A stretch of DNA of 64,000 nucleotides. It comes from Psammoneis japonica (Eukaryota). The stretch is from assembly GCA_008632985.1 (NCBI GenBank), contig QPGO01000102.1, positions 124,001 through 188,000 of the forward strand, in the 5' to 3' direction. Both the position numbers and the translations under genes were made by a program. The notes beneath the pieces were generated by a model. It made no database searches, was not told where the DNA came from, and worked only from the letters and a program-made list of their open reading frames with translations. Every line of letters starts with the position of its first letter. The first letter of the stretch is position 1. Below, in pieces: positions 1 through 22,495 of this stretch.

Positions 1-71
1 GTGGTTGGAATGAAGCACAGCAGCTGGGTTGCACCGCCGAGCAGCTCCTTGGGGCCGGTTGCAAGATCGAG

Positions 72-1218
72 TTGGTGGGTGATCAGGCCACCTTTGTGAA
101 ACCGGAGGTCCTGCCTTTTTGCAGCGGCAAAAGCGAGGAGGCAGCCAAGCCCGCGGCCAAAGTGGTTGCGAAAGCAACGGCGGAAGAGGAAGAAGAAGGA
201 AAGCAATTTCCGGACCCCAACGATCCGTCATTCGACTTGTGGGACTGGGTGTTGCGGCACGAAAAATCCGATAAATTCCAGGAGTCCATGTGCCTGATGA
301 AGGATGCGCCGAACAATCCCAACCTCTGGTTCCCCGCACTGGGAGAACTGGGGTGCATCAGGAGCGACCCTGAAGCCGTCGCGAATGCTCACAGCAAACA
401 CTGCAAGTGGGTGTGGAGGTGCCGCACGGAAGTCGGCGAGAGGGGCATCCCAGACTCGACGCCGAAGAGCAACAAAGTGTTCAAGACCGCCATCGAGGCT
501 TTCGAAGCGGGGTGGTTGCTCGCACTGGTCTGTCTCGTGAAGAGAGCAAGTGCAGAAGTGTGCACATTTGGATGAGGCGCCGCGTCACTTAACCTGCGTT
601 GTTTTGCCTCGAAAAGTCCGTTCGCTCCGCAGGCCCCAAGGAGGTGGAGGTGGGCGAGCTGCGCGTGTCACAACGGAGGGGCGCAGGCATTGGTTTTTTT
701 GCCTTGTGCCAGTTCCAGAAAGGCAGCACGGTTGGAATCTACGTGGGCCCCAGGGTGCCCGGTACGACGAGGAGCCACTCGTGGTGCGACCACGACAGCA
801 AGTTTGGAGAAGACCACAGCGTGTGCTGCTCCACCATCCGTGACAGCGAGGGCCACTGTGTCACAGTGGAGCCAAAACGCTTGATTTTAGTGGTCCAGGG
901 AACAAGAGTTCCCATCCACTCTACCTCAGAATGCACTGCGTGAACGATGCCACCGAGTCGTTCAAGGACAAGAAGAAGATCAAGGCAAGCCAACACACGG
1001 ACAACAACTGCAAGTTCTACAACGACGGGTGCTTGGCAGTCACGAAGCGAATCATGCCCGGGGAGGAATTTCTCTGCAGATGCAACTTGGACGAATCGGA
1101 GAAGAAGAAGAAGAAGAGGAAGGCGACGTCGGGTGCCATGAATCGGAAGAAGAAATCGTGTCTACTCCCCAAGTCGGGGGGGAGAAGCTCTACGTCTGGC
1201 AAAATGTCTGCCATGTAG
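72..1218 (+). pseudogene. SET-domain (protein-lysine methyltransferase-like) gene, disrupted
   Basis: Frame 599-943 has 'VSQRRGAGIGFFA...KGSTVGIYVG' (SET motif I/II). After a frameshift near 900, frame 931-1218 has 'PLYLRMHCVND...NNCKF...AVTKRIMPGEEFLCRCN' (the SET NHS-like and GEEL.xxY motifs, with Tyr read as Cys). ORF 72-575 may be the N-terminal part of the same gene. Confidence 0.65.
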
Positions 1219-1328
1219 TGTGCTCTGTAAATTAGCAGCACAGTGTGTTGGTGTTTTTCAGCGAAACTGTGGCATTGGTTGGAAAGGCGTGGCCCCAATT
1301 GTGGTTCGAAAAATGGGAACGAGGAAGA

Positions 1329-1455
1329 ACAGAAAGTCGGTAAATTTACGCAAATCCAGCAAATTAGCAGGTGCCTGCACAGTCGCCTGAGCACAGAAAG
1401 TCAGTAAATTTACGCAAATTTAGCAAGTTATTTTGCACCATCACAGTCGCCTGAG
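1329..1455. repeat. Short imperfect tandem duplication (about 64-bp period)
   Basis: acagaaagtc(g/a)gtaaatttacgcaaat at 1329 and 1393; cacagtcgcctgag occurs twice. Confidence 0.7.
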
Positions 1456-2583
1456 AATGGTCTCTTCCTCTAGAGAAAGGGGGATCGAATTGTTGTTCTT
1501 GCCCACTGCAGCACTCTTCAGGTGGAGAGACATGCAAAAGAACTCGTCGTTTGAGTTTGTCCTGCTGGAGATGCAGTGGCACTTGGTGGGGTTAAAAATG
1601 ATGACATCACCAAGCCGGAGTGCAACGGAGATGCCTTCGGTGGGGAAGCAGAAGCATGCCACAATCCCGTCATTCATGGTGCAGCTGCCGGACGGAGGGA
1701 CTCCCACCACGGTGACTGCTGACAGGAAGAAGTCCTGGTCCCAATGGGCATTGAGGAAGACATTGCGCCCAGCCGCCAGAGAGGAGAAAATGCCATCTGA
1801 CCGCACCAGGGATTTCCAGTTGTGAAACTTTTTGACACGAGCGACACCCTCAAGGATGGCACAGTCCACGTGCTCATTGACAAGGTGCTCCATGCGTGAA
1901 AGAAGTCTGGTGAGGTGGTGAGTGTGTTGGTCGGCCATGCCAGGCTGCTTGCAAGAAATTGGAGTGTCCCTCGTGGCAGCCAGGCCAATCGTGGAACACT
2001 TGCTCCTGTCCGTCTCCATGAAGGTGACGCGTTGTTTGCCGCGCACAGTGGACTGGGCGGTGCAGCATTCTAGTGCTTCGAGCGCTCGGCACTGAGCAAC
2101 TAGTTCTGCTGGGTTGGGGGAGCTGAACACCACAGCAGAATGCGGCAGCAGGGTGCAGGTGTTGTCGCAGCGGCAACCGTCCAAGCCAAAGAAAGGCTTC
2201 AGATCGAGCACAGGGTCACAGACGACCAGAGGAGCCAATTCGGCAAAGTCAATGTCAGCAAGACAAGGTGGTGCAGGCTGAGTGCAGTCACCGTTATAAA
2301 CTAGAGTGCGGTCAGCTACGCAGTGTACGGAGAGACTCTCAGTGGCGCACGGTGCGAGTGGAACGAGGCCAGCAATCTTGGATGTTTTCCTGCTGGCGCG
2401 GCTGCGGATTCGCCTGCGGCTGCGGCGGGCCTTACGAAGTGGCGGTTGAGCCCTCAACACGTTCTCGTACATCCTGGTGCGCATTGACGATGCGGTGTTC
2501 GCAGAGAACGTGTGTGCGAACTTGCCGGTAAATGTTCCGCTGCTTGACACTGTCGACGTGTTCCAGTCCCAGGTGACGCACAA
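1441..2583 (-). CDS. 2OG-Fe(II) dioxygenase-like protein with TET/JBP-type motif layout (TA-scarred, possibly dead)
   Basis: 'RNVFLNAHWDQDF' (HxD at 1738-1746), then 'FCFPTEGISVALRLGDVIIFNPTKCHCISSR' (distal His at about 1576), as in double-stranded beta-helix dioxygenases. The canonical R-x-S-x-V-x-Y strand is not clearly present. True start uncertain. Confidence 0.55.
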   Translation of the reverse strand: MCVTWDWNTSTVSSSGTFTGKFAHTFSANTASSMRTRMYENVLRAQPPLRKARRSRRRIRSRASRKTSKIAGLVPLAPCATESLSVHCVADRTLVYNGDCTQPAPPCLADIDFAELAPLVVCDPVLDLKPFFGLDGCRCDNTCTLLPHSAVVFSSPNPAELVAQCRALEALECCTAQSTVRGKQRVTFMETDRSKCSTIGLAATRDTPISCKQPGMADQHTHHLTRLLSRMEHLVNEHVDCAILEGVARVKKFHNWKSLVRSDGIFSSLAAGRNVFLNAHWDQDFFLSAVTVVGVPPSGSCTMNDGIVACFCFPTEGISVALRLGDVIIFNPTKCHCISSRTNSNDEFFCMSLHLKSAAVGKNNNSIPLSLEEETILRRL

Positions 2584-3131
2584 AACGACAATCGGATTTT
2601 GAATATAATTTATGTATGTTTTAGTGTATAGAGCATTTTAATAAAAATACTTAGACGGATTGACTTTTATAGGCTTCTAGAGTATGAACATTTAAATAGT
2701 TTTTTGAGGGGTATTCAAATCCTCATAGGATATGTATCATAAACTTCCTCAGTAGACTCAATACTGATTGTACGTCAGTAGATTTATACTGAGATTTTTT
2801 TGTAGGTAGAAAACCTACCAAGTAGCATCGTAGAAAGATATATTTAGGTAACATCCAAATAACGGCAATATTTTCGCCGAAAATCATCCGTTGTGTTACG
2901 AATCTTTTAACGCAATGAAAAACATAGATAGCACAATAACAATGATATTGCAACACTCACACGAGTCTTGTTAGTGTTGCAAAACATTTATATTTGAATA
3001 AATCTATACTTTTGGTGGTGAAAGTTCGATCGTAAGTTAGGGACCGCGCAAAAATCGCGCAAATGTCGTTTTTGTGCACGATTTGGTTCACGTGCGGCTG
3101 GAACACGTCTGTCACTGTCGTCTCAACAGTG

Positions 3132-3295
3132 CCCAAAGCAGAACTCTGTCGACAGGGACCGGCGGACTCCAGGGGAGTGGGGTCAAAACCCAATCGAGAG
3201 ATGTGTCTGCTTTCCGTTGCCTCAAGAGCACCCAAAGCAAAACTCTGTTGACAGGGACCGGCGGACTCCAGGGGAGTGGGGTCGAAACCTAATCG
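3132..3295. repeat. Direct repeat, two ~65-bp copies 99 bp apart
   Basis: cccaaagca(g/a)aactctgt(c/t)gacagggaccggcggactccaggggagtggggtc.aaacc.aatcg at 3132 and 3231. Confidence 0.85.
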
Positions 3296-3880
3296 CAAGA
3301 AGCATTTGCTTGTTGTCGGGCTGCGAGCTGCACATCCCAAACCCCCACACTGTCGAGACCGGCTGTAACTCGATCGCGACAAGTGCTTGTCGTTGGCAGG
3401 ACGACGCAGCGAGGCACGAGGCAGTTGCGACATGGTGTGTCTCAATTTGAAATGTGTTTCAAAACACAATGACGGAAGTGTTGTCACGTTGTTTTTGTCT
3501 CCGCGGAGGGAGGATCATCCCATGGCAATCTCAGTGCGAGTTCTCGCGTAGAAGTGCGTTGCGTGCCGTGCCAGCTCGTGCGTTTGAATTGCACGGACAT
3601 GCAAGTGCGGCGATGATGAGAAGCAGTCCGAGATTCAAAACAAATTTTACCACCTAAAGGCGTCTTGTTGTTTCAACGCATCTACATGTCTGTTTAAAAT
3701 GACTTCACACGTCGCTCCATGCGCAGGCAGAGGTGGCACGCCGCGTTTGAAAATTTCGCGCGCGCAGAGGGCGCGACGGCAATTTTACGCATTCTGCGCA
3801 CGTCACAGTTTGGTTTGGAAACGCGACATCTGGTCAAACCCGCTGCAAGCAAGGTTGATGTTGCCACAAGGTTGGGTGCG

Positions 3881-4750
3881 ATGAACCATCGTTGCAGAAG
3901 TGTTAGGGAGTTTTGTCTTCAAACGGCTCCGGACTCCGCGCTCCAGAGCAGGCGTGTCTCCGGAGACGGAAGCGGATCTTCGCACGGCGGCGAAGTTGGC
4001 TTCGCTTTGAGCAGCGAAGTGTTTTTGAACGAACGCCTTCTTGGCGTGAATCACACCTGCGACACATCTGTCGACATGGGCGGGGGAGTTGCCGGACCCA
4101 GCATCGGGCTCAAGTTACTTCGTCGCCGTTGCACCGTGGTGAGCATCGAGGCCAACCACGATCGTCACCAAGAGGCTGTGCGTTGGGCTCATCGTGCTGG
4201 CCTTCGCTCGAACGGCGGGCCAGAGTTGATCAACAAGTCATTCTTGGACAAGAGGCTGGCTCCTTTGTGGAAAAAGAAAGGACTCAAGGTGTTCTTCAAC
4301 AACTGCAACTCCCGCATGGTCGACGACAAGAACACACAGCAGAAGGCAGAGGCGATGCTTTCGAAGTTGTGACGTGCTGGGACCGTGGTGGTGGCACCAG
4401 ATCCGCTGTTCGCGTCGCACGCGGGAGAGTGGATGCACGAGTCCTTCACGGTGGATTGCCATGATGGCGACTTTTTGTGGCACAGCGGAGACGTGAAACA
4501 TCTCGTCTTCCACAAGTGCACCAAGAAAGAGGAGACTTCTCAGTCAACCAGCCAGCACATGCGACGTCCCACTCCGACACACTTGGAACGGAAGCATTTG
4601 CCCGTCGCGAAACAGCCAATTTTACTTAAGAACTCAACTGAACTGTTTTTTTACTGTCACTGCACTGGACGTCACACGCCAGTTGCTCTGCTCAATTTGC
4701 CATTGCTTCGCGGTGACGTAAAGTTGTTGTCGGAGATGGTGCACACTTGA
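3881..4750 (+). pseudogene. DOT1-like class I SAM-dependent methyltransferase with one in-frame TGA (4370-4372)
   Basis: Motif order matches DOT1: 'HGGEV' (YGE-like), 'DTSVDMGGGVA' (motif I), 'VVSIEAN' (post-I acidic), 'INKSFLD', 'VFFNN', then after the stop 'AGTVVVAPDPL'. ORFs 3719-4372 and 4385-4750 share a frame. Confidence 0.6.
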
Positions 4751-5711
4751 AGAGACAGAGGAAAGCTGAGTTGCAATCGACACTTGGTTTACCAAACATT
4801 TGCAAATTTACACTGCACCGGCCAAAAAAAGAAACAACTTGGTCTTCGTCGCTGTCCTGAAGCACCAAGTCGTCATCGACGTTCAGGTCAACTTCGCAGT
4901 TGAGCTCGACATCATCATCGGCCTCTTCTCCAGCTTCTTCCACCGGAGCTCCAATGAGACGACAGAGTTCCACAGGCAACGACCCCTCGCAGAAGCAACT
5001 GTGAAGCAAGTTCTTGTTTTGGGCGCACCAACCGATGTGAAACTGACCACCTTCCTTCTGAAGCTCGGCAAGCGCCGCCTCGTTGCCGATCACTTCGGAC
5101 CAAACAGCATCCTTCATCCAGAAGAAGTCGTCTTCAACGAAGACCTCGGTGTTGTTCTCAGGGTCATCGTTCAGCTGCTTTGCAATGCACTTCCCGAGGC
5201 CGCGCACCCCAGCATCGGTTGGGACTTCTTCGAGGAAGATGAAGAAGAGACGCACGGCGCAGTTCTTGGCGTTCGTCTGCAACTCGCCCTCGTGAACCCA
5301 CCTGCCAGCGTAAGGGTGGAATCCGACTTGAACCGCCCACGGAGTCCTGCTGCGAAGGTCATCAAACAGAACCTTCTCCGACCAAACATTGGTTGAAAGG
5401 GGATTCTTGGCTTGGAGACGAAAAACGACGCCTTTCTTGCGGCCGACAGTGACAGTGGCGCAGCGCAGGAGGGCGACCTTGTCGGAATGGCTGCCATCGT
5501 CAGAACCGGCGGATTTGGAAAGCTTGAACCCGTGCTTGGCAAGGCAGTCTTCCGGTTTAAGGTCGTTGTCGGTCAAGCCATTGGTCTTGCGGGGCGGACT
5601 TAGTTTCTTCAACAGAGCATCAGAAAACTTCGTCTTTGCCTTCTTCTGTTTGGTTTCAGCGACTTTGGCTTTCGCAGCCGGGGAGGTCGTTGTGTTTCTT
5701 TTGCGTGCCAT
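4692..5711 (-). CDS. Hypothetical protein (basic N-terminus, globular core, acidic tail)
   Basis: Long open frame (ORF 4692-5891) with a likely ATG at 'MARKRNTTT'. Protein-like composition; no family recognised. Confidence 0.5.
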   Translation of the reverse strand: MARKRNTTTSPAAKAKVAETKQKKAKTKFSDALLKKLSPPRKTNGLTDNDLKPEDCLAKHGFKLSKSAGSDDGSHSDKVALLRCATVTVGRKKGVVFRLQAKNPLSTNVWSEKVLFDDLRSRTPWAVQVGFHPYAGRWVHEGELQTNAKNCAVRLFFIFLEEVPTDAGVRGLGKCIAKQLNDDPENNTEVFVEDDFFWMKDAVWSEVIGNEAALAELQKEGGQFHIGWCAQNKNLLHSCFCEGSLPVELCRLIGAPVEEAGEEADDDVELNCEVDLNVDDDLVLQDSDEDQVVSFFGRCSVNLQMFGKPSVDCNSAFLCLFKCAPSPTTTLRHREAMAN

Positions 5712-6261
5712 CGAATCAGTCGGAGAGAAATTGTGGGAACAAAAAGTGCGATCGTTCAGAAGTGCCAAGAAAGACCCAGCAGAGCTGCGTGCATCACACC
5801 AAGGAGAACTGGCAACGTCAGCAACCAGATTCAAACACGTCGAACTGCAACAAGGTAACCTTCCAGGTGTCAGCACTTGCAAGTGGTGCATGGATTCAAT
5901 TTGAACAAAACAGACACAAGGATCAGAGCACGCAAAGTCGCACTAAGTTTGCTGAAAATGCGTAAAATCACGTGCAATTCCGTCCGTGCTTCGTGTGCAT
6001 TTCAGCCGTTGCTGCCGCGCGGCCATCGCGCACGAAATCTAGTCGCCAAACGGTCGATGCCATCGCTGTCACTACATGCTGTACCTGGCAGTTAGCTGAG
6101 GTGGGCCCATCACCCATTTGGAGGATTCGCGCGCACTTTGGAAACACGAATGATGTCAATCGCATTGTCATTGCCACACGACTGACTCAGCTGCCCCGCC
6201 ACTCGTCAAAGCATGATTCTACGGAATTTACGTAAAGCTGCGCCCACCACCAAGATTGCCG

Positions 6262-6365
6262 AAACAACTTGAACAAGATCCGAATCTTGCCCCATGGAAT
6301 GTTCAGAGCAGATGGTCGAAACAACTTGAACAAGATCCAAATCTTGTCCCATGGGATGTTCAACG
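6262..6365. repeat. 57-bp-period tandem duplication (NNLNKI.IL.HGMF x2)
   Basis: aaacaacttgaacaagatcc.aatcttg.cccatgg.atgttca occurs at about 6262 and 6319. Confidence 0.8.
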
Positions 6366-6517
6366 TCGACGAAACTAAGCAGGACATCGTGCGTCTGGTG
6401 CGAAGAAGGACGTGGGAGGAACGCACACGTCACTCTTCCGTCGAGGTGAAAGAGGCACACTTTCGTCTCACTTTTTTGTGACAGAACCTTTGCGCAAAGG
6501 GAAACGAAAAGCATCCA

Positions 6518-7200
6518 ACTGCGGTGATTGGGCCACACCGATCGCAGTTCTCAGTTCTCACAGTGACCTGGCAACGCAGGTTGTGAGATGACGCACAAGC
6601 TCAGCTGCGGTGACTGGGTGACACCAGTCGCAGCTCTCACAGAGACCTGGTCGCACAGGTTGTGAGAACACGACACAACGCTGCGGTGATCGGACAGCAC
6701 TGACGCAGTTCGTCAAGCAACTAATTCACTTGGCTGCGGTGACTGGACGACACCAGTCGCAGCTCTCACAGCGACCTGATTGCACAGGTTGTGAGCAAAC
6801 AACACAGCGCTGCACCTCGTAATGCAGGTTGTGAGATGACGCACAAGCTCAGCTGCGGTGACTGGACGACACCAGTCGCAGCTCTCACAGAGACCTGATC
6901 GCACAGGTTGTGAGAACACGACACAACACTGCGGTGATCGGGTGGCACCGACGCAGTTCGTCAAGCAACTGGTTGGCTCGGCTGCGGTGACTGGACAGCA
7001 CCAGTCGCAGCACTCACAGCGACCTGATTGCACAGGTTGTGAGAAGACGACACAGCGCTGTGGTGAACGGGCAGCACCGACGCGGTTCGTTGATCAACTG
7101 GACAGAACCACTGCGGTGACTGGACGACACCAGTCGCAGTGCTGCAGGTGGCGAGAAAACACACATCGCTGTGGTGATTGGATGGCACCGATCGCAGCTT
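6518..7200. repeat. Tandem array (129-bp period) built from ~10 copies of a 28-29-bp imperfect palindrome plus a second hairpin motif
   Basis: ctg(c/t)ggtga...cacc..tcgcag-type units at about 6519, 6605, 6681, 6734, 6853, 6929, 6982, 7058, 7111 and 7169. Spacing 6605-6734, 6853-6982 and 6982-7111 is 129 bp. Confidence 0.85.
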
Positions 7201-7284
7201 CACGGTGATCGCACCGAAAAAACAACTGTTTTTGCTGAGTGACTTCTTGAAATTTGTCGAGTCAAAGCATCAGCTTAAATTAAA

Positions 7285-10200
7285 ATGGACGAGGCCAACT
7301 CCCGTGTTTGCAATGCAATCAATGGAAAGTTTGAGATGCTTTGTCTGCACAGAGACGGAGAATTTAGACCACACGCATGTTTGGTCTGTGGCGTTCTGCT
7401 GAAACCTAGAGAAGTTTGCTGCTTGCCACTCGAAACATTGGAATCAGCAAGAAACTTGCTCACCCCTTCAGACTGGAACAGCGCATCTGATCGTCTCAAG
7501 TCCTGCTGCACTGTAGAGCATGAAGATGCTGATTGGATCAAAGACCTGCTGCTTTCTCCCCGCGCCCAATGCGCAGTGCAGGAAGACAGACGACGTGTCG
7601 ACGGATTCACTTGCTGCAGCGAATGCTGAAGAAGCCTGGGAAGAGCCATCATGCCAATGTGCGCGACAGCGAACAACTGCTGTTTCGGCACCCCGCCGCA
7701 CGAACTGTTGTCCCCAACCGAGGTGGAATTGGCAATGCTCACACCAGTGAAAACATGCGGGTGCTGCTTCAGTTGCCTTGGCGGCAAACAGAAGAAGCTT
7801 CAGGGAAGTCTGACATGCTACAAAGTCAAGGTGCAAAGCATCATAAGAACTGTTGTGCACTTCGACGTGCTGAATTTACATCAGAATGTGATTTGCACTG
7901 ATGACTGGAAAGATGACTCCGGAGCAAAGACAACTTGCGCGTTCAAAGAACAGAATTAGGACGCACTGCATGCCAAGGGCGATGGAATGGCTGTTGCACC
8001 ACAACCAAGAGTGGGTGTGCCAACAGACAAATCTAGACGAAGTTGGGCGTGATCTGCGGAATCCTGCACTTGTCGACAGCACCGGCGAAGAAGAAGGAGA
8101 AAATGCAAATGTTGAGACCTCAGAGTCATTTCACATTTGCTTTCCTGATGGAACCATGTCTCCTGCGACCGGTGGTCAGTGCAACCTGGACTGCTTCAAA
8201 GATCTTGTGCACGAAGCTGCTGCCAACGGATTTGATTTAGAGGTGCAAGCACAGTTGTCTGAAGAATCTGCGAGTGATTTCAAAGGCAACAACTTCATCA
8301 ATGCGTGTCTGCTGCAGTTTCCTTTTGGCAGAGGAGGAATCAATGAGACGAGAATGAAGAAAGACGGAAGTCTTGCAGACAGCACCAACCTTGCACACTG
8401 TGCCAACCACTTGGCACGGATTTCCCAGCCTCACTTCCACGAGCAGCTCTTCGTGTTAACATGCCACAACTTGACAATGAAGCAAAGGATGCTGCAGAGC
8501 ACAGGGTGGAAAGTCAGGGACAAGAATCAGGCTGCACAGTTTGCAAACGAACTGACAGTGGACGATGTGGACAGAGCTGTTTGTGATCGCAACTTGGGTG
8601 AGAGAAGAGATTGTGGACTCGGGCACCACTTTTTGCGCGCACTCGACGTTGCATCTGCATCTCTGCCACACAGCAACGAAGCGGCAAAGAAAATGAGGAG
8701 AAACGCCGAAACTCATCAGCATCATTTTGGTCAGGGTGGCATTTTCTTGACCGTCAGTCCGGACGATGCAAATTCGTTTCTTGTGCAACTGCACTCGGGT
8801 GTCATCCTGGACCCAAACGAAGACGTGACACAACTGACGGACGAAATTCTTGCCAGCAGGGCTGAGCAACGTAATGAGCTGCGTCTAAAGTTTCCCAGTC
8901 TAACAGCCTTTGCATTCGAGTGCTTGTTTGACATTGCAACGGAAGAGGCAGTGGGTTGGGATCTGAGTGCCAACCAACCAAGAGAAAACTTTAACTTCTG
9001 CGTTGGCAGGCCAGCCGCATTTTTAGCCGCAGTTGAGGAGCAGGGACGTCTGACAGTGCACGGACACATGCAGATCTGGTTCGCATCGATCAACAATGCA
9101 AGAGAGAAACTGCATTCACCAATGAGACAGATCCGACGCGAAGGTGCTGATTGCCTTGCCAACACAGTTCAGAAGATCTGCAGCACGGAATTAATCTGTG
9201 GCGAGGACTTCAGCACCAACGCGTTGCGTGAAGCATTCGATCATGACTGCACAGCACCAAAAATGTGTCGCACCTCTCCAAAAGCAGCAGACGACCAACA
9301 GCTAAGAAACCTGAGGCATGAAGACGGCCAGCAGTCGAAGAACGGAATGTTTGCTTGTTGTCGTCACTGCACCAAGTGCTGGACAAACGTCGAGTTTGTA
9401 GAAAGCTTTTTGCAGTCACGGCACCGTGTGCCTGGCCTGACTCGCCATCCAGATGACCATGCAAAGCAACTAAAAGCAATGTGTGTACAACACCAGCGAA
9501 GTGGTCCGCAAGGGACAATGGAGGCATGCATGCCGGACGCAGCTTACAACCATCACATGCACGTTACGAAGTCGTGTTTTCCCAAATGCGCAGAGTTACG
9601 TAAAATGCGCAAAAAAACCCCACACGAGGAACTGGACGCGCTGTCAAGGAAAAGGAAACGAGAGGAGCTCAAACTGGGTGACTGCCGTCACAGGCAACCA
9701 GCTGCTTCGTGTCCAAATAATTTGGCAAGGAACGCAGATGACACTCAGATAAAGTGGTTCAGCTGGGATGGGACTTTTACGCATCGGTGCGTGAAGGAAG
9801 TTGTTCCGAAGAGGAGAAAGTGCGATGCTTTTCAAAACGTGCCGTGCCCTGCAACAAGCAGATCAAAACTGACATGCAACACAAACATTGCTTTGTTGAT
9901 GCCTGGACCGTCTGCTCAACACACGATCAAGCACATCCTAAAAGATGCCCAGAAAGATGACACTGCATCGTACGACAAAGTGCTTCGAACTGCGAACAGG
10001 ACAGCGACGGAATTACGGAAACACGCATCTGATGCATCGGAAGCAATCAGACGTCTCACATGGGGTGCTCACTCGCATGACAAGACGAACGTCATTGGAC
10101 CACCACTTGCGTCTTACATGACAAGGAACAGAAGCCGTTTCATCGAATCTCATTTGACCGCATGGTGCCCCTTGAAAGACATTGTCAGCACACTAGAAAG

Positions 10201-13018: not shown

Positions 13019-13083
13019 AATGAAATGTTTCGATTAGATCAGCACATTGCGCAGAAATCTGCACATGCGTCACACAACGTTGA

Positions 13084-13554
13084 ATGGATTTTAACCAACA
13101 AACCAAGAAACGCGAACGCAACCGTCACAGAAAACGCAGCAACAGAGAAAACATGGATTTGCAACAACAAACAAAGAAGGCAGACGAGCCAAAGAAAACT
13201 GGTGAGGACAACAAAAAGGTGCAGACACATGCGGAACTTCTTCAGTCATTGATGAATGAGGAAGACGAAGAGGAGATCACCTTGGAAGAAGCAAGAGCGG
13301 CGTTTGACCTTGCTTCAGGAAATTTTGATGTCACTTCTGCACTTGTGCAAGACAACACGACAGTGGACAGTCATCATGTGGAAACAACGGTCACGCCCAA
13401 GGATGATTCAACCATGGAGGAGCTAAAGGCAGCACATGCAGCGGCGATTCCACAGCGGTCGGGGAGATTTTTCACCGAGGAGGAGATGGCGGAGCAGGAG
13501 AAGGAGCAAGCAAAGTCCCTTCAGAAGAAGCATGGCCAGAAAGAATGGAATTGA
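13084..13554 (+). CDS. Small acidic hypothetical protein
   Basis: 156-aa ATG-initiated ORF immediately downstream of RepHel, in a block where stop codons are depleted, so weak evidence. Confidence 0.3.
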   Translation: MDFNQQTKKRERNRHRKRSNRENMDLQQQTKKADEPKKTGEDNKKVQTHAELLQSLMNEEDEEEITLEEARAAFDLASGNFDVTSALVQDNTTVDSHHVETTVTPKDDSTMEELKAAHAAAIPQRSGRFFTEEEMAEQEKEQAKSLQKKHGQKEWN

Positions 13555-14496
13555 GCAAATTGCAAACAACTGTTTGGCAAAGACAACCGCATCAATGCGT
13601 GAAATGCATGCACATGGACTTTCACTTAAGCCGCCGCGGATTGAGCATGGCCACAAATGAGGACTGGCCATTTGGCAAAGAAACTGCAACAATGCGTAAA
13701 TTTCGTACATTTCCACATTCACTTAATCCAACGCAGCTTGCCTCAGACAACATCAACATGCACAACTGGACAACATCAACACACACAGACAGCCTCATGA
13801 AACCTCACAGAAGACAGAACGGTCAGAAGCAAAACAACCAGCACCACGCACTAACGCATGTCAGTCATGTCGCGTGGGTCGCGCAAAAGCGCGCACCGAA
13901 ACGACCGTCATGTGTCACAACCAATTCGAACGCCCGGCGCAAAATGCAGCAAAATGATTGGTGCAGGCAATCGTCATGGCTTTTTTTTCTGACAGCAGCG
14001 AGGGCGGCAATCCAAAATCTTTCGGCTTCAGACTTCGATCTAGAGAGTTCCACCTAAAAGAGGAGGAACCAATTGTTGGTGCTTGCCTTTGACAGAAAAA
14101 ACGCGCGTCAGTCGCCTGTTTCCTCTCCAGCGTCTTTTGGTGCAAAAAATGCTTGGGCTTTGTGTGCGATTTCAGAAAAAAAGATGAGGTTTGCTCTGAA
14201 AATGCGACGGAGGCGCATGGTTGCATGGAATGCTGCAGAAGCGTGAGACAACAATGGCGCACTGAAGCCCTGCCTGCATCGGTGTTTGGATTGGTCTGTC
14301 CCCTTGACAACACCTCTGCAGTGCCTTGCTGCAGTTCATAGAGTGGGGCCCCACCTGTGTGCTCAGTCTACGAACAGACACAGCACAGGGTGCCGCGCGC
14401 ACTGTGTTGCCCAAACTCATCATTGTCCACAAGAACCACGGCTTTGGAAAAGAATTGCATGCCGCGCATCAACCAAAGTGACTCCAGAGAGGGAAT

Positions 14497-15395
14497 TCAA
14501 AGTGCTTCACTTTTTTGTTTTTGATTCTCAGTGTGAGATGGCTTGATTGGAGAAGGCTTTTCCTTGAGGAAGTGGCAAATCAAGTCAGGCTCTTTTCGCG
14601 TGTGCGCCAACACCTTTGCCCACAAAGCATCAGGGACCCCAGACTTTTGCAACAAGGAACTTTCTTCCTTTTTGCAACAATGACAATCCTCAATTTCAGC
14701 ACATCCTCTCTCTCCAACAGTGCGACCCAGAGAATTGACACTTGTTGTTGTGTTTTTTCCTTTGGTGCGCGAGCCATTGTTGCTTTCAATCTGGCACCAC
14801 CAAACTGATTCTCCAGGATGTCGAAACATTTCATCATGTGATTCTTTTGCAACATCTTTCCAGAAGCTCTGGTGCCTTTGATGCCAAATCAATTGCCCCA
14901 GAGTTGCAATGTCTTGGCTCTCTTGTTCTGGGCAAGGACTTTCCCTGTGGCTCTGGCGCCCTCATCTCCCAAAAGATTCTTGATGAGACAAACACACACA
15001 ACTGTGTCATTCTGGGTGAGTCCTTCAAAAAGCTTGTGTGCACCATCATCTTCAATGTCAGTGCCACTCAGAGCCAAACTTCTGATCACATGGTTTGTTT
15101 TCAACATTTCTCCAATGTGCTTTGCGCCCTCATCGCCAATCTGACGATTGCGATCCTCAAGGAAGAGCACATTGACTGAAGTGTTGTTCCTCAATGCCTC
15201 ACACAGAAACCTGATGCCAGTTGGGCCAATGTTGGTGTCAATTGACACCAACCATCTTGGACATGGCAGATGTGGGATCACTTGGGGCAACTGGCACATC
15301 TCTTCATCTCTGACGTTTTTTCCAACGAGTTCAATCCACTCAACATTTGGAACTCTCATGGCCAAGATGTCTTGTAAATCCCTTGAAGATGACAT
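14497..15395 (-). pseudogene. Degenerate copy of the RNI-like LRR gene
   Basis: Aligns to 21266-22153 and 31404-32294 ('DLQDILAMRVPNVE...EPDLICHFLKEKP'). Premature TGA at 14889 derives from CGA; frameshifts; Tyr read as Cys/His. Confidence 0.9.
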
Positions 15396-16829
15396 TTTGT
15401 CAGAGGTGTCAATGACAAGAAAATGAGCAAGCACCTTAAGAGGACAGCAGACAACAATGATGGTGAGTGTGTCATGTGACTCAGTGACTTTCCATGGTCT
15501 GCATCAAGAGTTTGGAGTTTTCGAGGGAAATGGCATGGGCAGTGGGCTGAGTGGTTTGAGCACAGTGCACCCACTCAATCTGCAATCCACGATGACACAA
15601 CGACAATTGGACACTTTGCTGGGTGGCCTTGTCTCATTGTCTTGGCACAAACAGAGTGACCACAAAGTGCTCTGTTCTCTAGAATGATGAGCATCACTTT
15701 GCCACTCTTCAAGAGAAGAACATCTGTGGCATTCTTGGGCTTTGGTTGGATGTTCATTTTGCTGGAAAGCCAACAGGACACCTGGCAGCACCCCCATGCA
15801 AGCACTGCAAAGTGCCCCACCAGCATCATCTTCATCATGTCTTGCACCTCTCTGACCAACTTGTTGACAGCACTTGCCACCCACAAATGGTCTGGTGCAG
15901 CAAGCAGAGAGCGCGCACCATCTCACACCACATTTGACCACCATCAACAACAACAATGCTTGCTCCTGTCTTTGCAGCTTGCAATCTGGCTCTTGATGAG
16001 CAGACAAAGCTGGGGTCATTTTGTTTGCAGCCCACCCAGATGCTTGTGCAATGCAGAGTGACAATGAATCAAGGCACAGGGGCTCACATTTTGAGCTTTG
16101 CCATGGCCGCCCTCTGACAATTGTGAGGCCGAGCAAGGGCATGCAGAGAAAAAGAAAGCCAGAAGTGCTTTTGGCTTTTTTGGGAAGTTGAGCTGAAAGA
16201 AAGTGGTTCTTTGGATGACTTGGAGTTGATGAGGGTTGATGGTCATTGGACAAGGTCAGCCAGCCTGCACCTCACAAGCTGAGCCCACTGTCTCTTGAGG
16301 CATGAGAAAAGAAGGTGTGGTCTGTCTCATGTGGCCCAAGAAGAGACACACATGTTGTCAACTTTCTAGCTCCACTCAACCTCAGTGTGGCAGCAAGCCA
16401 GCTGGAGATTGGTGCACAATGTGCAACCAGCCAAGATCAAGATTGTTGATCTGTCCATGAGTGCAGGAGTGGACACCTCAAACAAAGACTGCACCATGCC
16501 CAGATGGGGGGATGTGAAGCTCAGAACAGAGAATGCAACAGCTGACATCCTCAGCCCAAAGGATGTGAAAAGCAAGCAGTGTGACATGTGACAACAGAGT
16601 GGAAGGGGCAAGTTCTGGCTGTTGGGCAAGAAGACTGGCAAGCAAGTCATGGCATTCAGAGTTGACAATGTTGGGCTGCACATGTTTGCACCAAGCCAGC
16701 AACTCTTTCACTGCACAAAAGAGCTTTGAGCAAGTGAGCTGCATGTGAGCATGCTGTCAAAGAAGGAGAAGAAGAAGAAGAAGAACAGTCCCAAGCAACT
16801 TGCACAAATGGAAATGTTGTGAAAGTGAC

Positions 16830-18070
16830 ACCCACTCAATCTGTGATCCACGATGGTGTGCTGACAACAACAACAACCACGCAAGTGAGAACAGTGAGCC
16901 ACAAAACAACACATCAGCTGGAAGCAACTCTTTGCCACAATGGCCAACTGCAGCCACCAAAAATGACATTTCCCAGTTGGTCAAAGAGGCTGGAGCCTTG
17001 TTGGGTGCAGCAATCACCCAGGTGCCTTGCTTGCCCCCTCTTCAAGCACAAAAACAGCCCCCCCCCCCCCCCTCCCAAGGCACATGTGCAGCTCTTTTGC
17101 TGCAACAGCCCTGGCTCTTCTTTCAAATTTGTTTTTTCTGTGGCTTTCACATTTCTGCTCTCTCAGCTCAGAGGAGCATGTCTTGTCAAGAGCCAGCAGC
17201 GGTGTCTCCTGGGTTGTGTTGACAACATTGATGAGGTTGCTCTTTCTGCCCATGTTGAGAGCACAATGGGTCCCATGCTGAGATCTCTTGGGGTCAATTG
17301 CATCATGGACCATTTGGCTCTTGTGGGAAATGGGTTGATGAGCCAAACATGTGATGGCTTGTTCAAGTCAGTTCAGCACATGTGATGGCCTTGGCTGGCT
17401 CTGATCAAAAGTCTTGCAAAAGGCTTGTCTGGGAGGAGTGCAAGCAATGCACAGCCATGGTGAGCAGGACCTTTCAAGAACCTGGCTTGCCTGAAAAAAA
17501 TTGTGCCATGGGCTCAACAAGCAAGTGTCTTGCAGCCAAGCAGTTGCAGACTCAAAAAGCAGTGTGGAAATGCTGGCAAGCCATCACATTGCAGAGAATC
17601 AGCTTGGTCTGCATGTGCTGTGTGGCATGTCTGGCTGCACCAAGCACTTGCCAAGAGTCCTCCAGCCAAGTTTGTCTTAAGGTCTGACTTGTTGGACAGA
17701 GATGGGGCTGTTGCAAAAGTTGCATCTCTGCTTTGTCAAGCCACCCAAGATGAGTTTTTTGAAGTGTGGCATCAACAAGTGGTTGCTGACACCTCAGCAG
17801 ACAGGTGGCACACGTGCTTCCCCTCCAGCACCAGCCAAAAGTCTTCTGAGCTTGCCAACCATGCATGTGTGCAGTCCCATTTGTGTGTGCCAGTGTCTGG
17901 AGTGTGAGCATCCCATGAGGTCTGGCCTTCTTCACAGCCCACAGCACCAGACAAAAAACTCCAGTTTGGTTGGTCCAGGTTGATTTTCAAGCCTCGGAGG
18001 AACACAGCAGCAAGGTCCATGGGTGTGGCATGGAAACCAAAAAGTCAGCTCAAGGTGCTGGTGCATGTGC
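16830..18070 (+). pseudogene. Degenerate copy of the 5' UTR and 5' coding region of the HEATR5-like gene
   Basis: 16962 aatgacatttcccagttggtcaaagaggctggagccttgttgggtgcagcaatcacc aligns to the start of 31126(-). Homology continues to about 'FVLKSALEDKA...DKFPEVRQ'. Confidence 0.85.
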
Positions 18071-18721
18071 AGAAGGCAGAGCTTGTGACCATTTGCAAAA
18101 CAAGTGCCAAGAGCAGCACCTGGCAAAAGATCAAGTGGCACCAACAGACATGGCTGAAGAGCATTTTTTGCACTCTGCTGTCAGGTTGCAGAACTGGGCT
18201 TCATGGCACCTGTGCCAATGTCATTCACCTCAACTTGGCATCATCACCAACAGGTGACACCAACCCCAGCTGATTCTTTTGCCTTTCTGCACCACACCAT
18301 CTGTTGCAACGGAAGTGTGTGCGGGTCAACCTGCGGCACTGTTGTTGGCACAATGGCGCAACACCAGTGCTCTGGACTGGGTCCAGTTTTTTCAACACCA
18401 CTGGAGCTTGCTGCAGCTGTGGCCTTTGCATTGCTGCTGGCACTCACAGCAGCCAGAGCCCTGGTGCTGTTGGCACTCACAGAGGTTTTTGCACAAAACT
18501 GGCACCGGGAGTGGTTGGAGCCTTCTTGATGCTGCTGGCACTTGTTGTGGAGGTTGGAGAGCCTTCACATTGCTGTCATGGTTGGGGCCTTTGTGCTGTT
18601 GACCTTTGCTGCAGTTGAAGCCTTCTTTGTGTTGCTGGAACTTGCAACAGTTGGAGCTTTTGAGCCACTGGTGCTCATGGCTGTGGCATTTGTGGCAGTC
18701 AAAGCCTTGGAGCTTCTGGCA

Positions 18722-19440
18722 TTTGCAGAGGTTAGAAACTTTTTGCACAGATGGCACTCACTGGGGGTGGATTTCTGCTGTTGGTTGTCCCGCCACATCT
18801 TCCTCTGCTTTGGAGAAATGATCATGACAAACCACAAAGGAGCAACAAACCAGAAGCAAACCACCAAGCTTTCTTGAGCAAAATGACAAGAATGACCACA
18901 AGTTGCCCAGCCCACCAGTGTTTTGTCAACTTCTTTGAAAAAAATCCTTGTCCAGTGCCCACACAATGAAGAGCAATGCTGCACCATTGTTCAATTGTTT
19001 TTCTCTCCTTGCATGTTGGTGAGTGCAGTGCTGGCACATCACAGTTGTAAAGTGGCGCCAACAGACATGGCTGAAAAGAGCATTTTTTGCACTCTGCTGT
19101 CGGGTTGCAGAACTGGGCTTCATGGCACCTGCAGAGGTTAGAAACTTTTTGCACAGATGGCATTCATCAGGGGTGGATTTCTGCCATTGGTTGTCCCACC
19201 ACATCTTCCTCTGCTTTGGAGAAATGATCATGACAAACCACAAAGGAGCAACAAACCAGAAGCAAACCACCAAGCTTTCTTAAGCAAAATGACAAGAATG
19301 ACCACAAGTTGCCCAGCCCACCAGTGTTTTGTTGACTTCTTTGAAAAAAGATCCTTGTCTAGTGCCCACACAATGAAGAGCAATGCTGTGCCATTGTTCA
19401 ATCATTTTTCTCTCCTTGCATGTTGAGTGCAGTGCTGGTG
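18722..19440. repeat. Direct repeat, ~310-bp copies at a 406-bp period; 19048-19130 also repeats 18130-18212
   Basis: gcagaggttagaaactttttgcacagatggca... at 18725 and 19131, near-identical through ...tgcagtgctgg. Confidence 0.9.
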
Positions 19441-19454
19441 CATCGCAGCTGTCA

Positions 19455-19610
19455 GTTGTTGTTGTTGTTGTTGTTGTTGGTGTTGGTGTTGGTGGTGTTG
19501 GTGGTGGTGGTGTCAGCCATTGTTGTTGCTGTTGTTGCTGTTGTTGTTGTTGCCGCTGTTGTTGTTGTTGTTGTTGTGTTGGTCGTGGTGTTGTTGCTGT
19601 TGTTGTTTCA
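19455..19610. repeat. Compound (GTT)n/(GGT)n microsatellite
   Basis: Direct reading of the sequence. Confidence 0.95.
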
Positions 19611-21265
19611 TGTGGTTGCAACATGATGTCTCAAACAGCAGCAGCAGTGCTGCAGTTGGCATTGATGCAGTTTGCAAGGATGCTGGTGGCACAGACTCTA
19701 GCAGCAGCCACACTGCTGGTGGTGTCCCCCAAGATCACAGCAACCACCTCCAACAACAGCACCTCTGACAGCAACAGCAACAGCAGCACTTCCAGCTGGG
19801 TGAATGATGATGATGACATGTTGCAAATGATGACTCAGCCAGAGTGCAGCAAGCCAGGTGATGCTCCAGAATGGCTCATTGTGGGCTCCTCTGACAAAGC
19901 CAGTGGAAATGCCAATGGCGCCAATGCGGCAGCTCATGAAGGTGCTGGCAGCTCACCCTTTGACTCACCCAATGAAGCTGCTCACAATGGCACTCCTTTC
20001 TCCCATCCTGGCTCATTGTCTTTCATTTTGATGCCACCACTCATTGCCAGCCACCTTGTTGTTTTTCTTTGGAGTTCCCCGCCAAGCAGCAAAACAAGGA
20101 ACTTCTTAAAAAATGTGGCTCACTGTTGATGATCTTGTTTGTCAGGAGATTGTTGACTTGCACCCTGCCAAGGATGAGATTTTGAATTGTTTTGAAAACC
20201 AGCAGTCTTCGTTTGAGAAACTCAAGCTGAAGTGCCCCAAACAATTTTTTTCCTGTCGGGCATTGTTTTTTGAGAAGCTGCAAACAGCTGCACCAGGTGG
20301 CTGTCCAGTTCTCAGACATGTGAGCTGTGAGCTGCACCCACATTGCCAAGAAGGTTGTGCACCAGAGACAAAATGCTCTTTCACCACTCAGAGCAAACCT
20401 GACATGGGTCACCAAAGACAAGCAACCCTTCATTGGGAACTCTGCAGGAAAACAGAGCCAGCTCATGTGCCCCTTGAATGTCATCAAACAGTGTCTTTGG
20501 GGGGGGGGGGGGGGGCACTCAAAAATGCACAGTGACAGGAAGTTGTCAAGAAGCATCTCAAACAATGAGACTGGGTCATTGCTCCACCAAGGAAAGTGGG
20601 AAGTCAAACAAAGTGCTTTGCCTGCAAAAAGACAAGCATTTTGTGCAACAATTGCCCAAGTTTCCAAGCACTCAAGAGGCATTCCTCAAGACAGAAGACA
20701 CAAGGCAAAGATCTGTCCCATGTGCTCAACAGTGAAATGCCCCCCAACAACACAAGGGATGTTTGTGATGATCACATGGAGTCAGAAATGTGCCCCACCA
20801 AAATGAGTGGTGTCATCATTCACAGCAGTCTCCACATGGTGGTGGACAACCATGGCAAAAGTTGCCTTGAGCATCCCTCTCTGACAAAGACAGCAAATGT
20901 GGACCATGACTTCAAAAAACACCAACGGCAACCGTGCTTTCATCAACAAAAAAATTGTCCACTTCTCACATCATCTGTGAGATGGATGCTGGGAACTGTG
21001 TGACCACAAGTGGCTTCACAGACATGCACATCACAGCTGCCGTTGGTGTTCGGGACGCTTTCGGTAGCTCCATGCTATACAGCATCATTTATCGGTGCGG
21101 TAACCAGCACGATTCCTCAACAGTGCCATGCTGTACCATAGTTCATAGAGTAGGGCCCTACTAGTAGACTTACGAATAGATGCAGTAGGTTAGTATGACG
21201 TTACCTAAACTCATAACTAGGAGTTTCACGCTGTGCATTGACCACAGCGGTTCTAGAAAGGGAAT

Positions 21266-22153: not shown

Positions 22154-22495
22154 TTTTCAGAGGTATCAAAGAGACAAGAAAATGAGTGAGCACTTGAAGA
22201 GGACAGCGAGAGGTTTTCAACAAAGATAACAACAACGATGTTGCGTTGACGCAGACTTCGTATTGTTCCAGCACTTCGATCGTCGCGTGATGCGGGCGGC
22301 GGGCATGCCTAATTCTGAAAATCGTGTATGTATGTACTGTATTGTGCCGCGCAGACAGACGCGCAATCGCGCGTCTGTCTGCGTACGAACATGCTCGCGG
22401 CAACACAACATTGAACATCATCATCTCACAATGACCGAGCCGCCGTCGGATTGGCGTTGCTGTGTAACTGTGTAATAGTTAACATCATTGACAAT

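Follow-up and report, generated by a model that had tools for sequence, protein, structure and literature searches.

Block-wise replacement of TpA by TpG or CpA in transposon and other non-genic DNA of Psammoneis japonica

The closest described process is found in the chlorarachniophyte Bigelowiella natans, for which TpA → TpG/CpA hypermutation of integrated viral DNA was reported from mutation-accumulation lines, according to the main text of the preprint at TpA only and at about 1000 times the rate of the genome remainder; an adenine deaminase was proposed by the authors (Mettrop et al., bioRxiv 10.64898/2026.01.13.699255, 2026). RIP of Neurospora and other fungi also is a transition hypermutation of repeated or selfish DNA with a dinucleotide target, one hit each and abrupt borders, and converts C to T at CpA, thereby creating TpA and stop codons. 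In animals, the deaminase-type enzymes APOBEC3 and ADAR hypermutate selfish elements as single-stranded retroelement cDNA or double-stranded RNA and leave strand-clustered runs of G>A or A>G, with ADARs favouring a 5′ U (bioRxiv 10.64898/2026.01.13.699255, Discussion). The tRNA deaminase ADAT2 of amphioxus acts on DNA as well, where it deaminates A in the context GAA and C in the context TCG; its substrates were hairpins or single strands, in vitro and in E. coli, and no other eukaryotic ADAT2 is known to edit DNA (PMC10354150).

In this study, we analyzed a window of 64,000 nucleotides of P. japonica (contig QPGO01000102.1, positions 124,001 to 188,000). As in the B. natans preprint, the transitions at TpA lead exclusively to TpG or CpA and lie in discrete foreign or selfish DNA, and long-term TpA loss with gain of CpA and TpG is clustered in blocks; the enrichment of transposon domains in TpA-poor B. 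natans genes is a further likeness. The two cases differ, as far as the preprint describes its own, in the host, which by the best-matching named homologues of one protein is a diatom-like stramenopile here, in the targets (integrated viral DNA there; a family of Helitrons, a copied piece of a host gene and inserts here), in the extent of depletion, which is saturated here (observed/expected 0.03) versus Rho 0.45 in the B. natans NCLDV region, and in the accompanying CpG decay, which is not a feature given for B. natans. Moreover, the B. natans process is a measured rate, whereas here it is read from fixed differences alone. In contrast to RIP, TpA is destroyed, stop codons cannot arise, duplicates can stay intact and the heaviest scars lie in single-copy blocks. 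Unlike with APOBEC3 and ADAR, a DNA transposon and intergenic DNA are affected, with hits interleaved on both strands. Amphioxus ADAT2 shows that a eukaryotic enzyme of the TadA/ADAT2 type is able to deaminate DNA at A as well as at C, matching the two changes found in the window, but its report gives no transposon link and its contexts are not TA.

TA and CpG depletion in discrete blocks

For each block, observed/expected ratios (o/e) of dinucleotides were calculated; expected TA counts refer to the rate in the host gene blocks, and P values are binomial. The TA shortage described in an earlier note on this DNA is real: o/e is 0.03-0.25 in 1-21 kb and 35.4-40.4 kb, compared with 0.55 (21051-35400) and 0.57 (40401-64000) in the gene blocks, and all ten short words that the note quoted were found where it had placed them. 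The high-copy repeat at 1-2549 contains 31 TA (o/e 0.25) and has retained CpG (o/e 0.80); the word depth of contigs from run X1 is 3000-7000 there (covered from 2001 on) versus 55-80 in single-copy DNA. A further high-copy block with a Helitron inside (3110-14050) holds 105 TA (o/e 0.16) instead of 412 (P 8e-75) at a CpG o/e of 0.87. The single-copy block at 14051-21050, with a word depth of 55-120 across most of its length, has almost lost both dinucleotides, with 15 TA (o/e 0.033; 263 expected; P 7e-93) and 64 CpG (o/e 0.15), and the sole scoring match in a Pfam scan of its ORFs is an LRR_6 relic. The second TA-free, CpG-poor block (35401-40400) occupies the gap between an SF3A3-like gene and a JmjC/cupin gene (ORF from 40510) and contains 9 TA (o/e 0.031; 188 expected; P 6e-69) and 38 CpG (o/e 0.12). 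These two are the most depleted blocks; TG and CA reach o/e values of up to 1.8-1.9 in them (1.8 in 14051-21050). All borders are abrupt, with the final sparse TA at 20107 and dense TA from 21065, and with dense TA up to 35390 and again from 40557. The change is restricted to transposon and non-genic blocks; the earlier note had placed it in repeat and TE blocks.

CpG loss appears as a second change in the same DNA. Its o/e of 0.12-0.15 in the two most depleted blocks compares with 0.80-0.87 in 1-14050, and in the paralogue comparisons described below 21/30 and 43/57 ancestral CpG have become TpG or CpA. We suggest a second, slower process in the silenced DNA, for which deamination of 5-methylcytosine would be the simplest reading, because diatom transposons are CpG-methylated in a DNMT5a-dependent manner (PMC9998398). 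The likeness to 5-methylcytosine decay concerns CpG → TpG/CpA in 14051-21050 and 35401-40400, where methylation is presumed; such decay leaves TpA alone, whereas here TpA is also erased. The earlier note was right that neither this decay nor fungal RIP accounts for the TpA change, but it named the former only as background and missed the separate CpG process. CpG decay is near-complete only in the single-copy blocks, which presumably are the older ones.

Direction, sequence context and escape

The direction of change was derived from paralogues within the window. A scarred LRR pseudogene copy (14407-15448, minus strand; LRR_6 relic in ORF 14892-15503) was aligned three-way with two intact paralogues of normal TA content, A (21139-22231, minus strand) and B (31327-32437, plus strand, aligned as 32437-31327), to which it is 79% and 75% identical. 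The 22 TA common to both intact copies appear in the scarred copy as 11 CA, 9 TG, 1 TC and 1 TA. Compared between contexts, T>C is in excess at TA (11/22 versus 3/72, 6/49 and 7/91 in the remaining T contexts), as is A>G (9/23 versus rates of 0.04-0.12 outside TA). For HEATR5, 16790-17810 was aligned with the reverse complement of 30300-31260; the scarred segment (16829-17765, plus strand) is 67-68% identical to 31225-30345, which together with LRR paralogue B forms an intact source-like locus (30345-32437; HEATR5 segment 30345-31225 on the minus strand) of normal TA content. The intact copy has 36 TA, of which the 34 that are gap-free in the alignment became 17 TG, 9 CA and 8 other dinucleotides, none being retained. 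The outcome TG or CA at 20/22 (LRR) and 26/34 (HEATR5) sites agrees with the direction read by the earlier note; pooled, 46 of 56 ancestral TA changed in this way, one is still TA and none became CG. The scarred copies additionally hold about 10% ordinary substitutions plus indels. Internal duplicates of the depleted blocks show CA↔TG double differences in 6/15 and 14/74 events, the latter in a tandem duplicate of the second block (35948-36470/36477-37027), compared with 1/134 between intact paralogues.

The TA that survive in the depleted blocks point to a context preference. Densities per kb in 1-2549 plus 3110-14050 are 0.6 versus 20.2 in genes for ATA/TAT, 5.9 versus 23.0 for GTA/TAC, 5.7 versus 17.9 for CTA/TAG and 8.0 versus 14.3 for TAA/TTA, and an ATA/TAT flank is found on 9 of 160 surviving TA versus 658 of 1424 in genes (P 1e-27). 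The process is quickest at ATA/TAT and slowest at TAA/TTA. At the 39 paralogue sites scored, position −2 relative to the adenine presumed to be hit is A in 12 cases; for the strand left unhit the number is 5, a non-significant difference. In the main text of the B. natans preprint (supplements aside) the words 'context', 'trinucleotide', 'CpG' and 'diatom' are absent; the ATA/TAT preference comes from the window.

An unmutated island within the depleted DNA is a MITE-like insertion of 555 bp (2555-3109) with 53 TA (o/e 0.91), a 12-nt perfect terminal inverted repeat and a 5-bp target duplication (CTGTC). A run X1 contig (depth 996) runs from 2549 straight to 3109 without it, while depth is 18193 over 2668-3334; the MITE is young. 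The two intact LRR paralogues share 84.6% identity and are likewise unaffected by TA loss. Since both the MITE and these duplicates are spared, neither position nor duplication alone sets the targeting. The term 'regional' in the earlier note is therefore too simple.

Proposed mechanism and alternatives

With a probability of about 75%, the pattern is the trace of a DNA mutator that is real, targeted and specific for TpA, like the one in B. natans. Such a process would rewrite TpA to TpG or CpA at the DNA level, each TA undergoing a single transition on one strand or the other. It would act on copies of transposons, on a duplicated piece of a gene and on further non-genic inserts, sparing adjoining genes. 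As the first hit removes the target, TA would never become CG. The leading guess for the chemistry taken alone, held at slightly less than even odds, is a nucleic-acid deaminase that converts adenine in 5′-TA-3′ to hypoxanthine, read as G when the DNA is next replicated. Part of the earlier interpretation stands, as TpA direction, confinement and a targeted, defence-like mutator are still the best reading; its statement that no mechanism was described is out of date, the B. natans preprint having measured the same signature directly. The window is a new, saturated example in a further lineage, adding transposon and gene-duplicate targets and the ATA/TAT preference, and the same mutation type in an unrelated alga suggests a possibly widespread genome defence.

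Thymine instead of adenine is an unlikely target, although outcome and targeting would be the same and chemistry alone would differ: a TET/JBP-type dioxygenase or similar enzyme would modify T at TpA to 5-hydroxymethyl- or 5-formyluracil, pairing with G and giving T>C. 5-Formyluracil does mispair with G, and since TpA is its own reverse complement, a hit on T and one on A leave the same sequence. The modified base suggested in the earlier note is this one of the two chemical options. The B. natans study, the sole one on the process, proposes adenine deamination as a hypothesis. The DNA contexts reported for ADAT2, which are GAA when it acts on adenine and TCG when it acts on cytosine, are not TA (PMC10354150) and count against the deaminase proposal. 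Modified TpA bases in heterochromatin might instead be miscalled, with TA truly present, an artefact that is very improbable and already largely refuted. K-mer contigs built separately from the public run X1 at a depth of 55-66 agree with 14046-21288 apart from 0-2 differences in each piece of 0.5-1.7 kb; as this run may be the source sample of the window, they exclude an error of assembly or polishing more firmly than a read error specific to the chemistry. Together with this assembly, the 53 TA read in the MITE within the block argue against an artefact, as do the absence of CG at the 56 ancestral TA, each altered on a single strand only, the ordinary substitutions and indels of the scarred copies, the same scar in four metagenome contigs of other assemblies, and Illumina mutation-accumulation data that, in the preprint's account, show a real process in B. 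natans.

The preferred reading, a DNA mutator, is also to be weighed against composition and RNA editing. The elements might have come with a TA-poor composition or have been selected for it, for instance to evade a TA-cutting nuclease or TA-targeting insertions, which would fit the TA-poor state seemingly common to most high-copy repeat copies, as in an adapted lineage. This is as improbable as an artefact: conserved and invariant tyrosines are destroyed in two unrelated Helitron lineages, host-gene paralogues changed alike after duplication, and CA and TG occur as alternative products at one site among copies. Least probable of all is ADAR-like or tRNA-deaminase-like A-to-I editing of transcripts with subsequent reverse transcription and re-integration. 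A TA target does agree with the preference of ADARs for a U on the 5′ side and with the natural ADAT substrate, in which U33 precedes A34, but Helitrons, as DNA transposons, have no RNA copy step, the scar spans intergenic DNA and a segmental gene duplicate with both strands interleaved and no long single-strand runs, and TA specificity is near absolute, in which hyper-editing differs. No signs of retro-copying were found in the scarred copies of the window.

Tyrosine loss in open Helitron frames

When TA becomes TG or CA, no stop codon can arise and existing TAA and TAG codons disappear, so that hit genes keep an open frame. Under the standard code, no TA-free Helitron can encode its catalytic tyrosines, as these need TAY codons. 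They would lose tyrosine codons (TAY → CAY or TGY), and the tyrosine-dependent nuclease of a Helitron would thereby be killed, a transposon enzyme being destroyed while its reading frame stays whole. The Helitron Rep/helicase ORF at 7901-13018 (plus strand; Pfam Helitron_like_N, PIF1, AAA_30) extends over 1705 codons without interruption and encodes 6 Tyr (0.35%, versus 3.5% in 23 homologues), 73 His and 66 Cys. In 22 conserved Tyr columns, 4 Tyr are kept and 9 His, 6 Cys and 3 Phe are found, the 15 His/Cys replacements carrying CAY/TGY codons; 350/398 other conserved columns are kept (Fisher P 2e-12). The motif Q-Y-x-F-K-Y-x-L-K (9920-9934, plus strand), whose paired tyrosines we take to be the Rep catalytic pair, has CAC (His) at 9920 and 9932 in place of Tyr, invariant in 23/23 homologues. 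Judged by these replacements, the ORF is evidently inactivated despite its open frame.

In the repeat of roughly 50-80 copies, most of the TA loss may go back to a single event in a master copy. Of 4664 aligned run X1 contig pieces, 1237 are alike at ≥99%, and copies therefore do not fix the number of independent events. Among the 35 listed sites that differ between copies, the TA axis accounts for 12 and the CG axis for 18, with 5 falling outside both. At 8465-8466, Tyr in 22/23 homologues, the window has CA (His) and another run X1 copy TG (Cys); such differing products at one site indicate independent hits after copying. Related Helitrons occur at 77 metagenome loci, of which four carry the same scar: TA o/e is 0.02-0.19 in L016, in L045, in L050 and in the right half of L029. 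In L016, an ORF of 1882 codons is open and has kept 0/25 conserved Tyr (16 Cys, 5 His, 4 Phe), with 425/448 remaining conserved columns kept.

TpA loss and its direction

The earlier note had described TA as nearly absent from most of 1-21050 and 35401-40400, which was confirmed by dinucleotide counts, and the short words it quoted were all found at their positions (10/10). TA numbers in the depleted segments were far below those expected at the host rate, with 31 instead of 96 in 1-2549 (observed/expected (o/e) 0.25; binomial P 5e-15), 105 instead of 412 in 3110-14050 (o/e 0.16; P 8e-75), 15 instead of 263 in 14051-21050 (o/e 0.033; P 7e-93) and 9 instead of 188 in 35401-40400 (o/e 0.031; P 6e-69). 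The gene blocks contained 502 (21051-35400) and 926 TA (40401-64000), with o/e values of 0.55 and 0.57. The o/e of TG and CA was 1.4-1.9 in depleted blocks (1.8-1.9 in 14051-21050 and 35401-40400), compared to 1.1-1.2 in genes. At the right border of the first depletion, sparse TA ends at 20107 and dense TA starts at 21065; around the second block, TA is dense until 35390 and again from 40557. Within the 64-kb window, the borders between blocks (o/e 0.03-0.25) and genes (0.55-0.57) are sharp to about 50-150 bp.

Self-comparison of the window revealed scarred copies, in which TA is erased into TG or CA, together with their intact paralogues. The scarred LRR copy (14407-15448) matches intact copies at 21139-22231 and, on the other strand, at 32437-31327, while 16829-17765 is a scarred fragment of the neighboring HEATR5 gene with its source-like counterpart at 31225-30345. 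In a three-way LRR alignment, the 22 TA common to both intact copies became 11 CA, 9 TG and 1 TC in the scarred copy, with 1 TA kept. The T>C excess at TpA over other T contexts, on which the earlier note had made its reading depend, was seen: T>C occurred at 11/22 TA, but at 3/72 TC, 6/49 TG and 7/91 TT, corresponding to a rate of 0.50 versus 0.04-0.12. A>G occurred at 9/23 TA versus 0.06-0.10 in other contexts. In the HEATR5 pair, 34 aligned TA became 17 TG, 9 CA and 8 other dinucleotides, and none was kept. For both scarred copies together, 46 of 56 ancestral TA were converted to TG or CA, so that the direction proposed in the earlier note was borne out, and none of the 56 had become CG; therefore, exactly one target-destroying event occurred per TA. 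TG and CA products are interleaved along both scarred genes, and a search along them for long single-outcome runs indicating strand processivity found none. Taken together, the process is a TpA-specific, one-hit, two-strand transition with sharp borders that acts on selfish and non-genic DNA.

The two scarred pieces (14407-17765) are arranged relative to each other like the intact genes (30345-32437), but in inverted orientation and separated by about 1.4 kb of additional DNA. The region resembles an old inverted segmental duplication that took in two adjacent genes, located about 13 kb from its source.

CpG was also altered in the scarred copies. In the LRR copy, 21 of 30 CpG were converted (15 TG, 6 CA), and in the HEATR5 fragment 43 of 57 (25 CA, 18 TG). 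The pattern of methylated-CpG decay, i.e. CpG converted to TpG/CpA and a CpG o/e far below 1, was found in 14051-21050 (o/e 0.15) and 35401-40400 (0.12), compared to 0.80-0.87 in 1-14050. This separate CpG decay is complete only in single-copy blocks.

The TA loss depended on the flanking bases. In 1-2549 plus 3110-14050 versus genes, ATA/TAT occurred 0.6 versus 20.2 times per kb, GTA/TAC 5.9 versus 23.0, CTA/TAG 5.7 versus 17.9 and TAA/TTA 8.0 versus 14.3. Among the surviving TA of all depleted blocks (counted over 1-2549, 3110-21050 and 35400-40400), 9/160 had an ATA/TAT flank, compared to 658/1424 in genes (P 1e-27). The process is thus fastest at ATA/TAT. For the struck base of the TA pair, flanks were compared at 39 paralogue sites: the second base on the 5′ side of the adenine presumed to be hit was A in 12 cases versus 5 on the spared strand, which was not significant. 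Trinucleotide gains are confounded by composition, and from sequence it cannot be told whether T or A is struck.

Targets in the depleted blocks

The ORF 7901-13018 encodes a single protein that has both a Rep domain and a helicase of the PIF1 type (Pfam: Helitron_like_N, E 1e-9; PIF1, 6e-15; AAA_30, 9e-16), as is characteristic of Helitrons, i.e. rolling-circle transposons. It has 90 full-length relatives with up to 45% identity. Its 1705 codons run without interruption and include only 6 Tyr (0.35% versus 3.5% in 23 homologues), together with 73 His and 66 Cys. Among the 420 columns in which at least 80% of the 23 homologues agree, 350 of 398 non-Tyr columns were kept, but only 4 of 22 Tyr columns (Fisher P 2e-12); the altered ones now hold 9 His, 6 Cys and 3 Phe, with the codons CAY and TGY. 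In the motif Q-Y-x-F-K-Y-x-L-K, both Tyr are invariant in 23/23 homologues and are His in the window (CAC at 9920 and 9932). We take these Tyr to be the catalytic pair of the Rep nuclease, and by this reading of its sequence the window Helitron is a dead copy that has lost the pair. Since the change from TA to TG or CA makes no stop codon, deletes TAA and TAG and abolishes TAY, a gene remains open yet dies; the process has inactivated a Helitron while leaving its frame open. A DUF6570 match at 7630-7956 (+), typical of the N-terminal part of Helitrons, adjoins the long ORF upstream, with its own ORF overlapping the start of the latter in another frame. The original protein probably had about 1850-1900 residues like its relatives, with the start now split off.

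When 101 stop-to-stop ORFs from the depleted blocks were scanned against Pfam, only DUF6570 (7630-7956) and an LRR_6 relic exceeded the cut-off, with no such match among the ORFs of 35401-40400. For the ORF 4695-5942 (-), no relatives were found at E ≤0.001 among proteins of 228-728 residues. The ORF starting from 1444 (-; to 2549/2637), located in the high-copy repeat, has 701 relatives at E ≤0.001, and a Pfam scan of 11 of these found no family. It may represent an unrecognised transposon-borne protein of a large Pfam-less family.

In Logan contigs of X1, the one public sequencing run containing the region, word depth was 3000-5000 over 2-14 kb versus 55-80 over most of 14.7-21.3 kb; therefore, the left part is a repeat present in about 50-80 copies, and the right part single-copy. 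Two other runs, X2 and X3, contain almost nothing of the stretch. The repeat copies differ in their hits. At 8465-8466, a codon for Tyr in 22/23 homologues, the window has CA (His) and another X1 copy has TG (Cys). Among 35 listed variant sites in 2-14.3 kb (386 more exist), the TA/TG/CA axis accounts for 12 and the CG/TG/CA axis for 18, with 5 outside both. Double differences between CA and TG made up 6/15 and 14/74 events between internal duplicates of old blocks, compared to 1/134 between intact paralogues. At least at some sites, the process thus acted after copying. Of the X1 contig pieces, 1237/4664 are at least 99% alike, and much of the TA loss in the repeat may be shared by descent. 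At 6576-7139, the high-copy block contains tandem repeats (248 and 129 bp), and their copies differ mainly at CG/TG/CA sites (6/18 events).

The TA "island" seen in the earlier note (2555-3109) corresponds to a MITE-like element of 555 bp with a perfect 12-nt terminal inverted repeat, a 5-bp target duplication and 35% GC. It has 53 TA (o/e 0.91) and no TA scar. Its depth in X1 was 18193, the highest of the stretch, versus about 60 for single-copy DNA, and one X1 contig links 2549 to 3109 without the element. The family is very abundant and apparently young, and the MITE is a younger insertion into DNA that was already scarred. Because this TA-rich younger element lies inside a depleted block, the scar is neither a uniform regional property nor a regional read error. 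With respect to duplication, the scarred sequences include a duplicate, the LRR/HEATR5 copy, and a high-copy element, the Helitron, but the intact LRR paralogues (21139-22231 and 31327-32437; 84.6% identical) and the MITE are unscarred.

Recurrence in metagenomes and alternative explanations

Metagenome contigs were scanned with an alignment of Helitron proteins, resulting in 77 loci. TA o/e was 0.03 in L016 (7761 bp; CpG 0.30), 0.07 in L050 and 0.19 in L045. In L029, the right 2.2 kb (2001-4169) have a TA o/e of 0.02 and the left 2 kb are normal (0.5-0.7), with a sharp border near 1970. The remaining 73 loci showed values of 0.37-0.98. The Helitron of L016 is 44% identical to that of the window and has an open ORF of 1882 codons with 2 Tyr. 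None of its 25 conserved Tyr columns was kept (16 Cys, 5 His, 4 Phe) versus 425/448 others (95%), so that the rate at TA must be far above background; the tyrosine-pair motif reads Q-C-x-F-K-H. Tyr was replaced by Cys and His in 6 versus 9 cases in the window and in 16 versus 5 cases in L016, and due to this opposite bias no transcription-strand rule can be derived.

A base-calling or assembly artefact would have to produce the scar from DNA that still carries TA. X1 contigs at depth 55-66 agree with 14046-21288 (0-2 differences per 0.5-1.7 kb piece), although X1 is possibly the source sample, with the library type unrecorded, and such a match tests assembly and not biology. Against an artefact speak the one-hit rule, the ordinary substitutions and indels by which the scarred copies have diverged, the TA-rich MITE and the recurrence in metagenomes, which make it very unlikely. 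Fungal RIP is triggered by duplication; diatoms are reported to carry DNMT4 enzymes related to the RIP factor RID (PMC9998398). RIP converts C to T at CpA and leaves TpA excess and premature stops, whereas in the window TpA is lost and the 1705-codon ORF stays open, i.e. the direction is wrong. ADAR hyper-editing followed by retro-copying was rejected as well: one-strand A>G clusters are absent, TG and CA alternate, and the scar is carried by intergenic DNA and by a DNA transposon. Selection for a TA-poor composition was also rejected.

Relation to Bigelowiella natans and the host genome

To our knowledge, a cellular process specifically converting TpA to TpG/CpA in DNA had not been known before 2026, and the statement of the earlier note that no mechanism was described is now outdated. 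The same signature has been reported for Bigelowiella natans (Mettrop et al., bioRxiv 10.64898/2026.01.13.699255). According to this preprint, 231 of 302 nuclear single-nucleotide mutations in 15 mutation-accumulation lines lay in integrated NCLDV and virophage DNA; A>G and T>C accounted for nearly all mutations in viral DNA and fell without exception on TpA. The rate was given as about 6e-7 per site per generation, raised about 1000-fold and in some lines only. For the genome, 124 clusters of TpA-poor, CpA- and TpG-rich windows were described, with an ADAT2 homologue as candidate. The main text of the preprint is silent on CpG, on context beyond TpA and on diatoms (bioRxiv 10.64898/2026.01.13.699255). 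Our literature search for the TpA to TpG/CpA signature found this preprint as the sole description, and no report from diatoms. The window shares with B. natans the coupling of TpA loss to CpA and TpG gain in its dinucleotide counts, the depletion in discrete selfish or foreign blocks amid normal genes within 64 kb, and, in the LRR and HEATR5 paralogues, changes confined almost entirely to A>G or T>C on TpA.

These features suggest a process of the same kind in both organisms, and adenine deamination in DNA is the favoured candidate mechanism. In amphioxus, ADAT2 was found to deaminate A and C in DNA, in the contexts GAA and TCG (PMC10354150). Diatom transposons are reported to be CpG-methylated by DNMT5a (PMC9998398), and the CpG component would correspond to decay of 5-methylcytosine, lagging because it is slower. 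The process presumably serves as a defence, and the core inference of the earlier note, a genome-defence or chromatin-coupled mutator acting on TE domains, is judged sound.

The window represents a second eukaryotic lineage, with new details, for a phenomenon first reported in 2026, for which the B. natans evidence so far consists of one preprint on integrated viruses in a single rhizarian alga. It adds a saturated signature in a diatom-like genome, transposons and one duplicated gene fragment as targets, a clean read-out (open ORFs without tyrosines, dead catalytic sites) and the scar in environmental contigs; together, window and environmental scars point to a widespread, possibly ancient defence. 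A broader proposal, which we regard as tentative (probability about 0.3), is that diatoms and chlorarachniophytes, perhaps much of SAR, share a programmable defence. It would consist of a natural DNA adenine deaminase acting on TA, best on ATA/TAT, aimed at single selfish elements with base-pair-sharp borders, possibly via small RNAs or chromatin marks, and disabling them quickly by erasure of Tyr codons, never by stops. If true, such an immune system would amount to a natural "adenine base editor" and would mirror fungal RIP. The ATA/TAT preference is a constraint that any candidate enzyme must match, and if the enzyme is a DNA adenine deaminase, it would be directly relevant to base-editing technology. 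Genetic tools exist for diatoms. Elsewhere, the process can be searched for by TA o/e <0.1 with TG/CA near 2 and by Tyr-free ORFs.

Concerning the host, an SF3A3-like ORF (32989-34758) has best matches with 53% identity, and all five organism-named matches are diatoms (two Pseudo-nitzschia, Fistulifera, Nitzschia and Cyclotella). Going by this one protein, the host is assigned to a diatom or a close relative, not to Bigelowiella. An exact look-up of 10 proteins of the window in the protein collection found none of them. Four long host ORFs that overlap or adjoin each other (365, 406, 890 and 1069 aa) were found at 46052-53922 (+), for which Pfam is almost silent, with only a weak hint of KNTC1 ARM repeats; they are probably parts of a single large gene that has short introns or frame changes.
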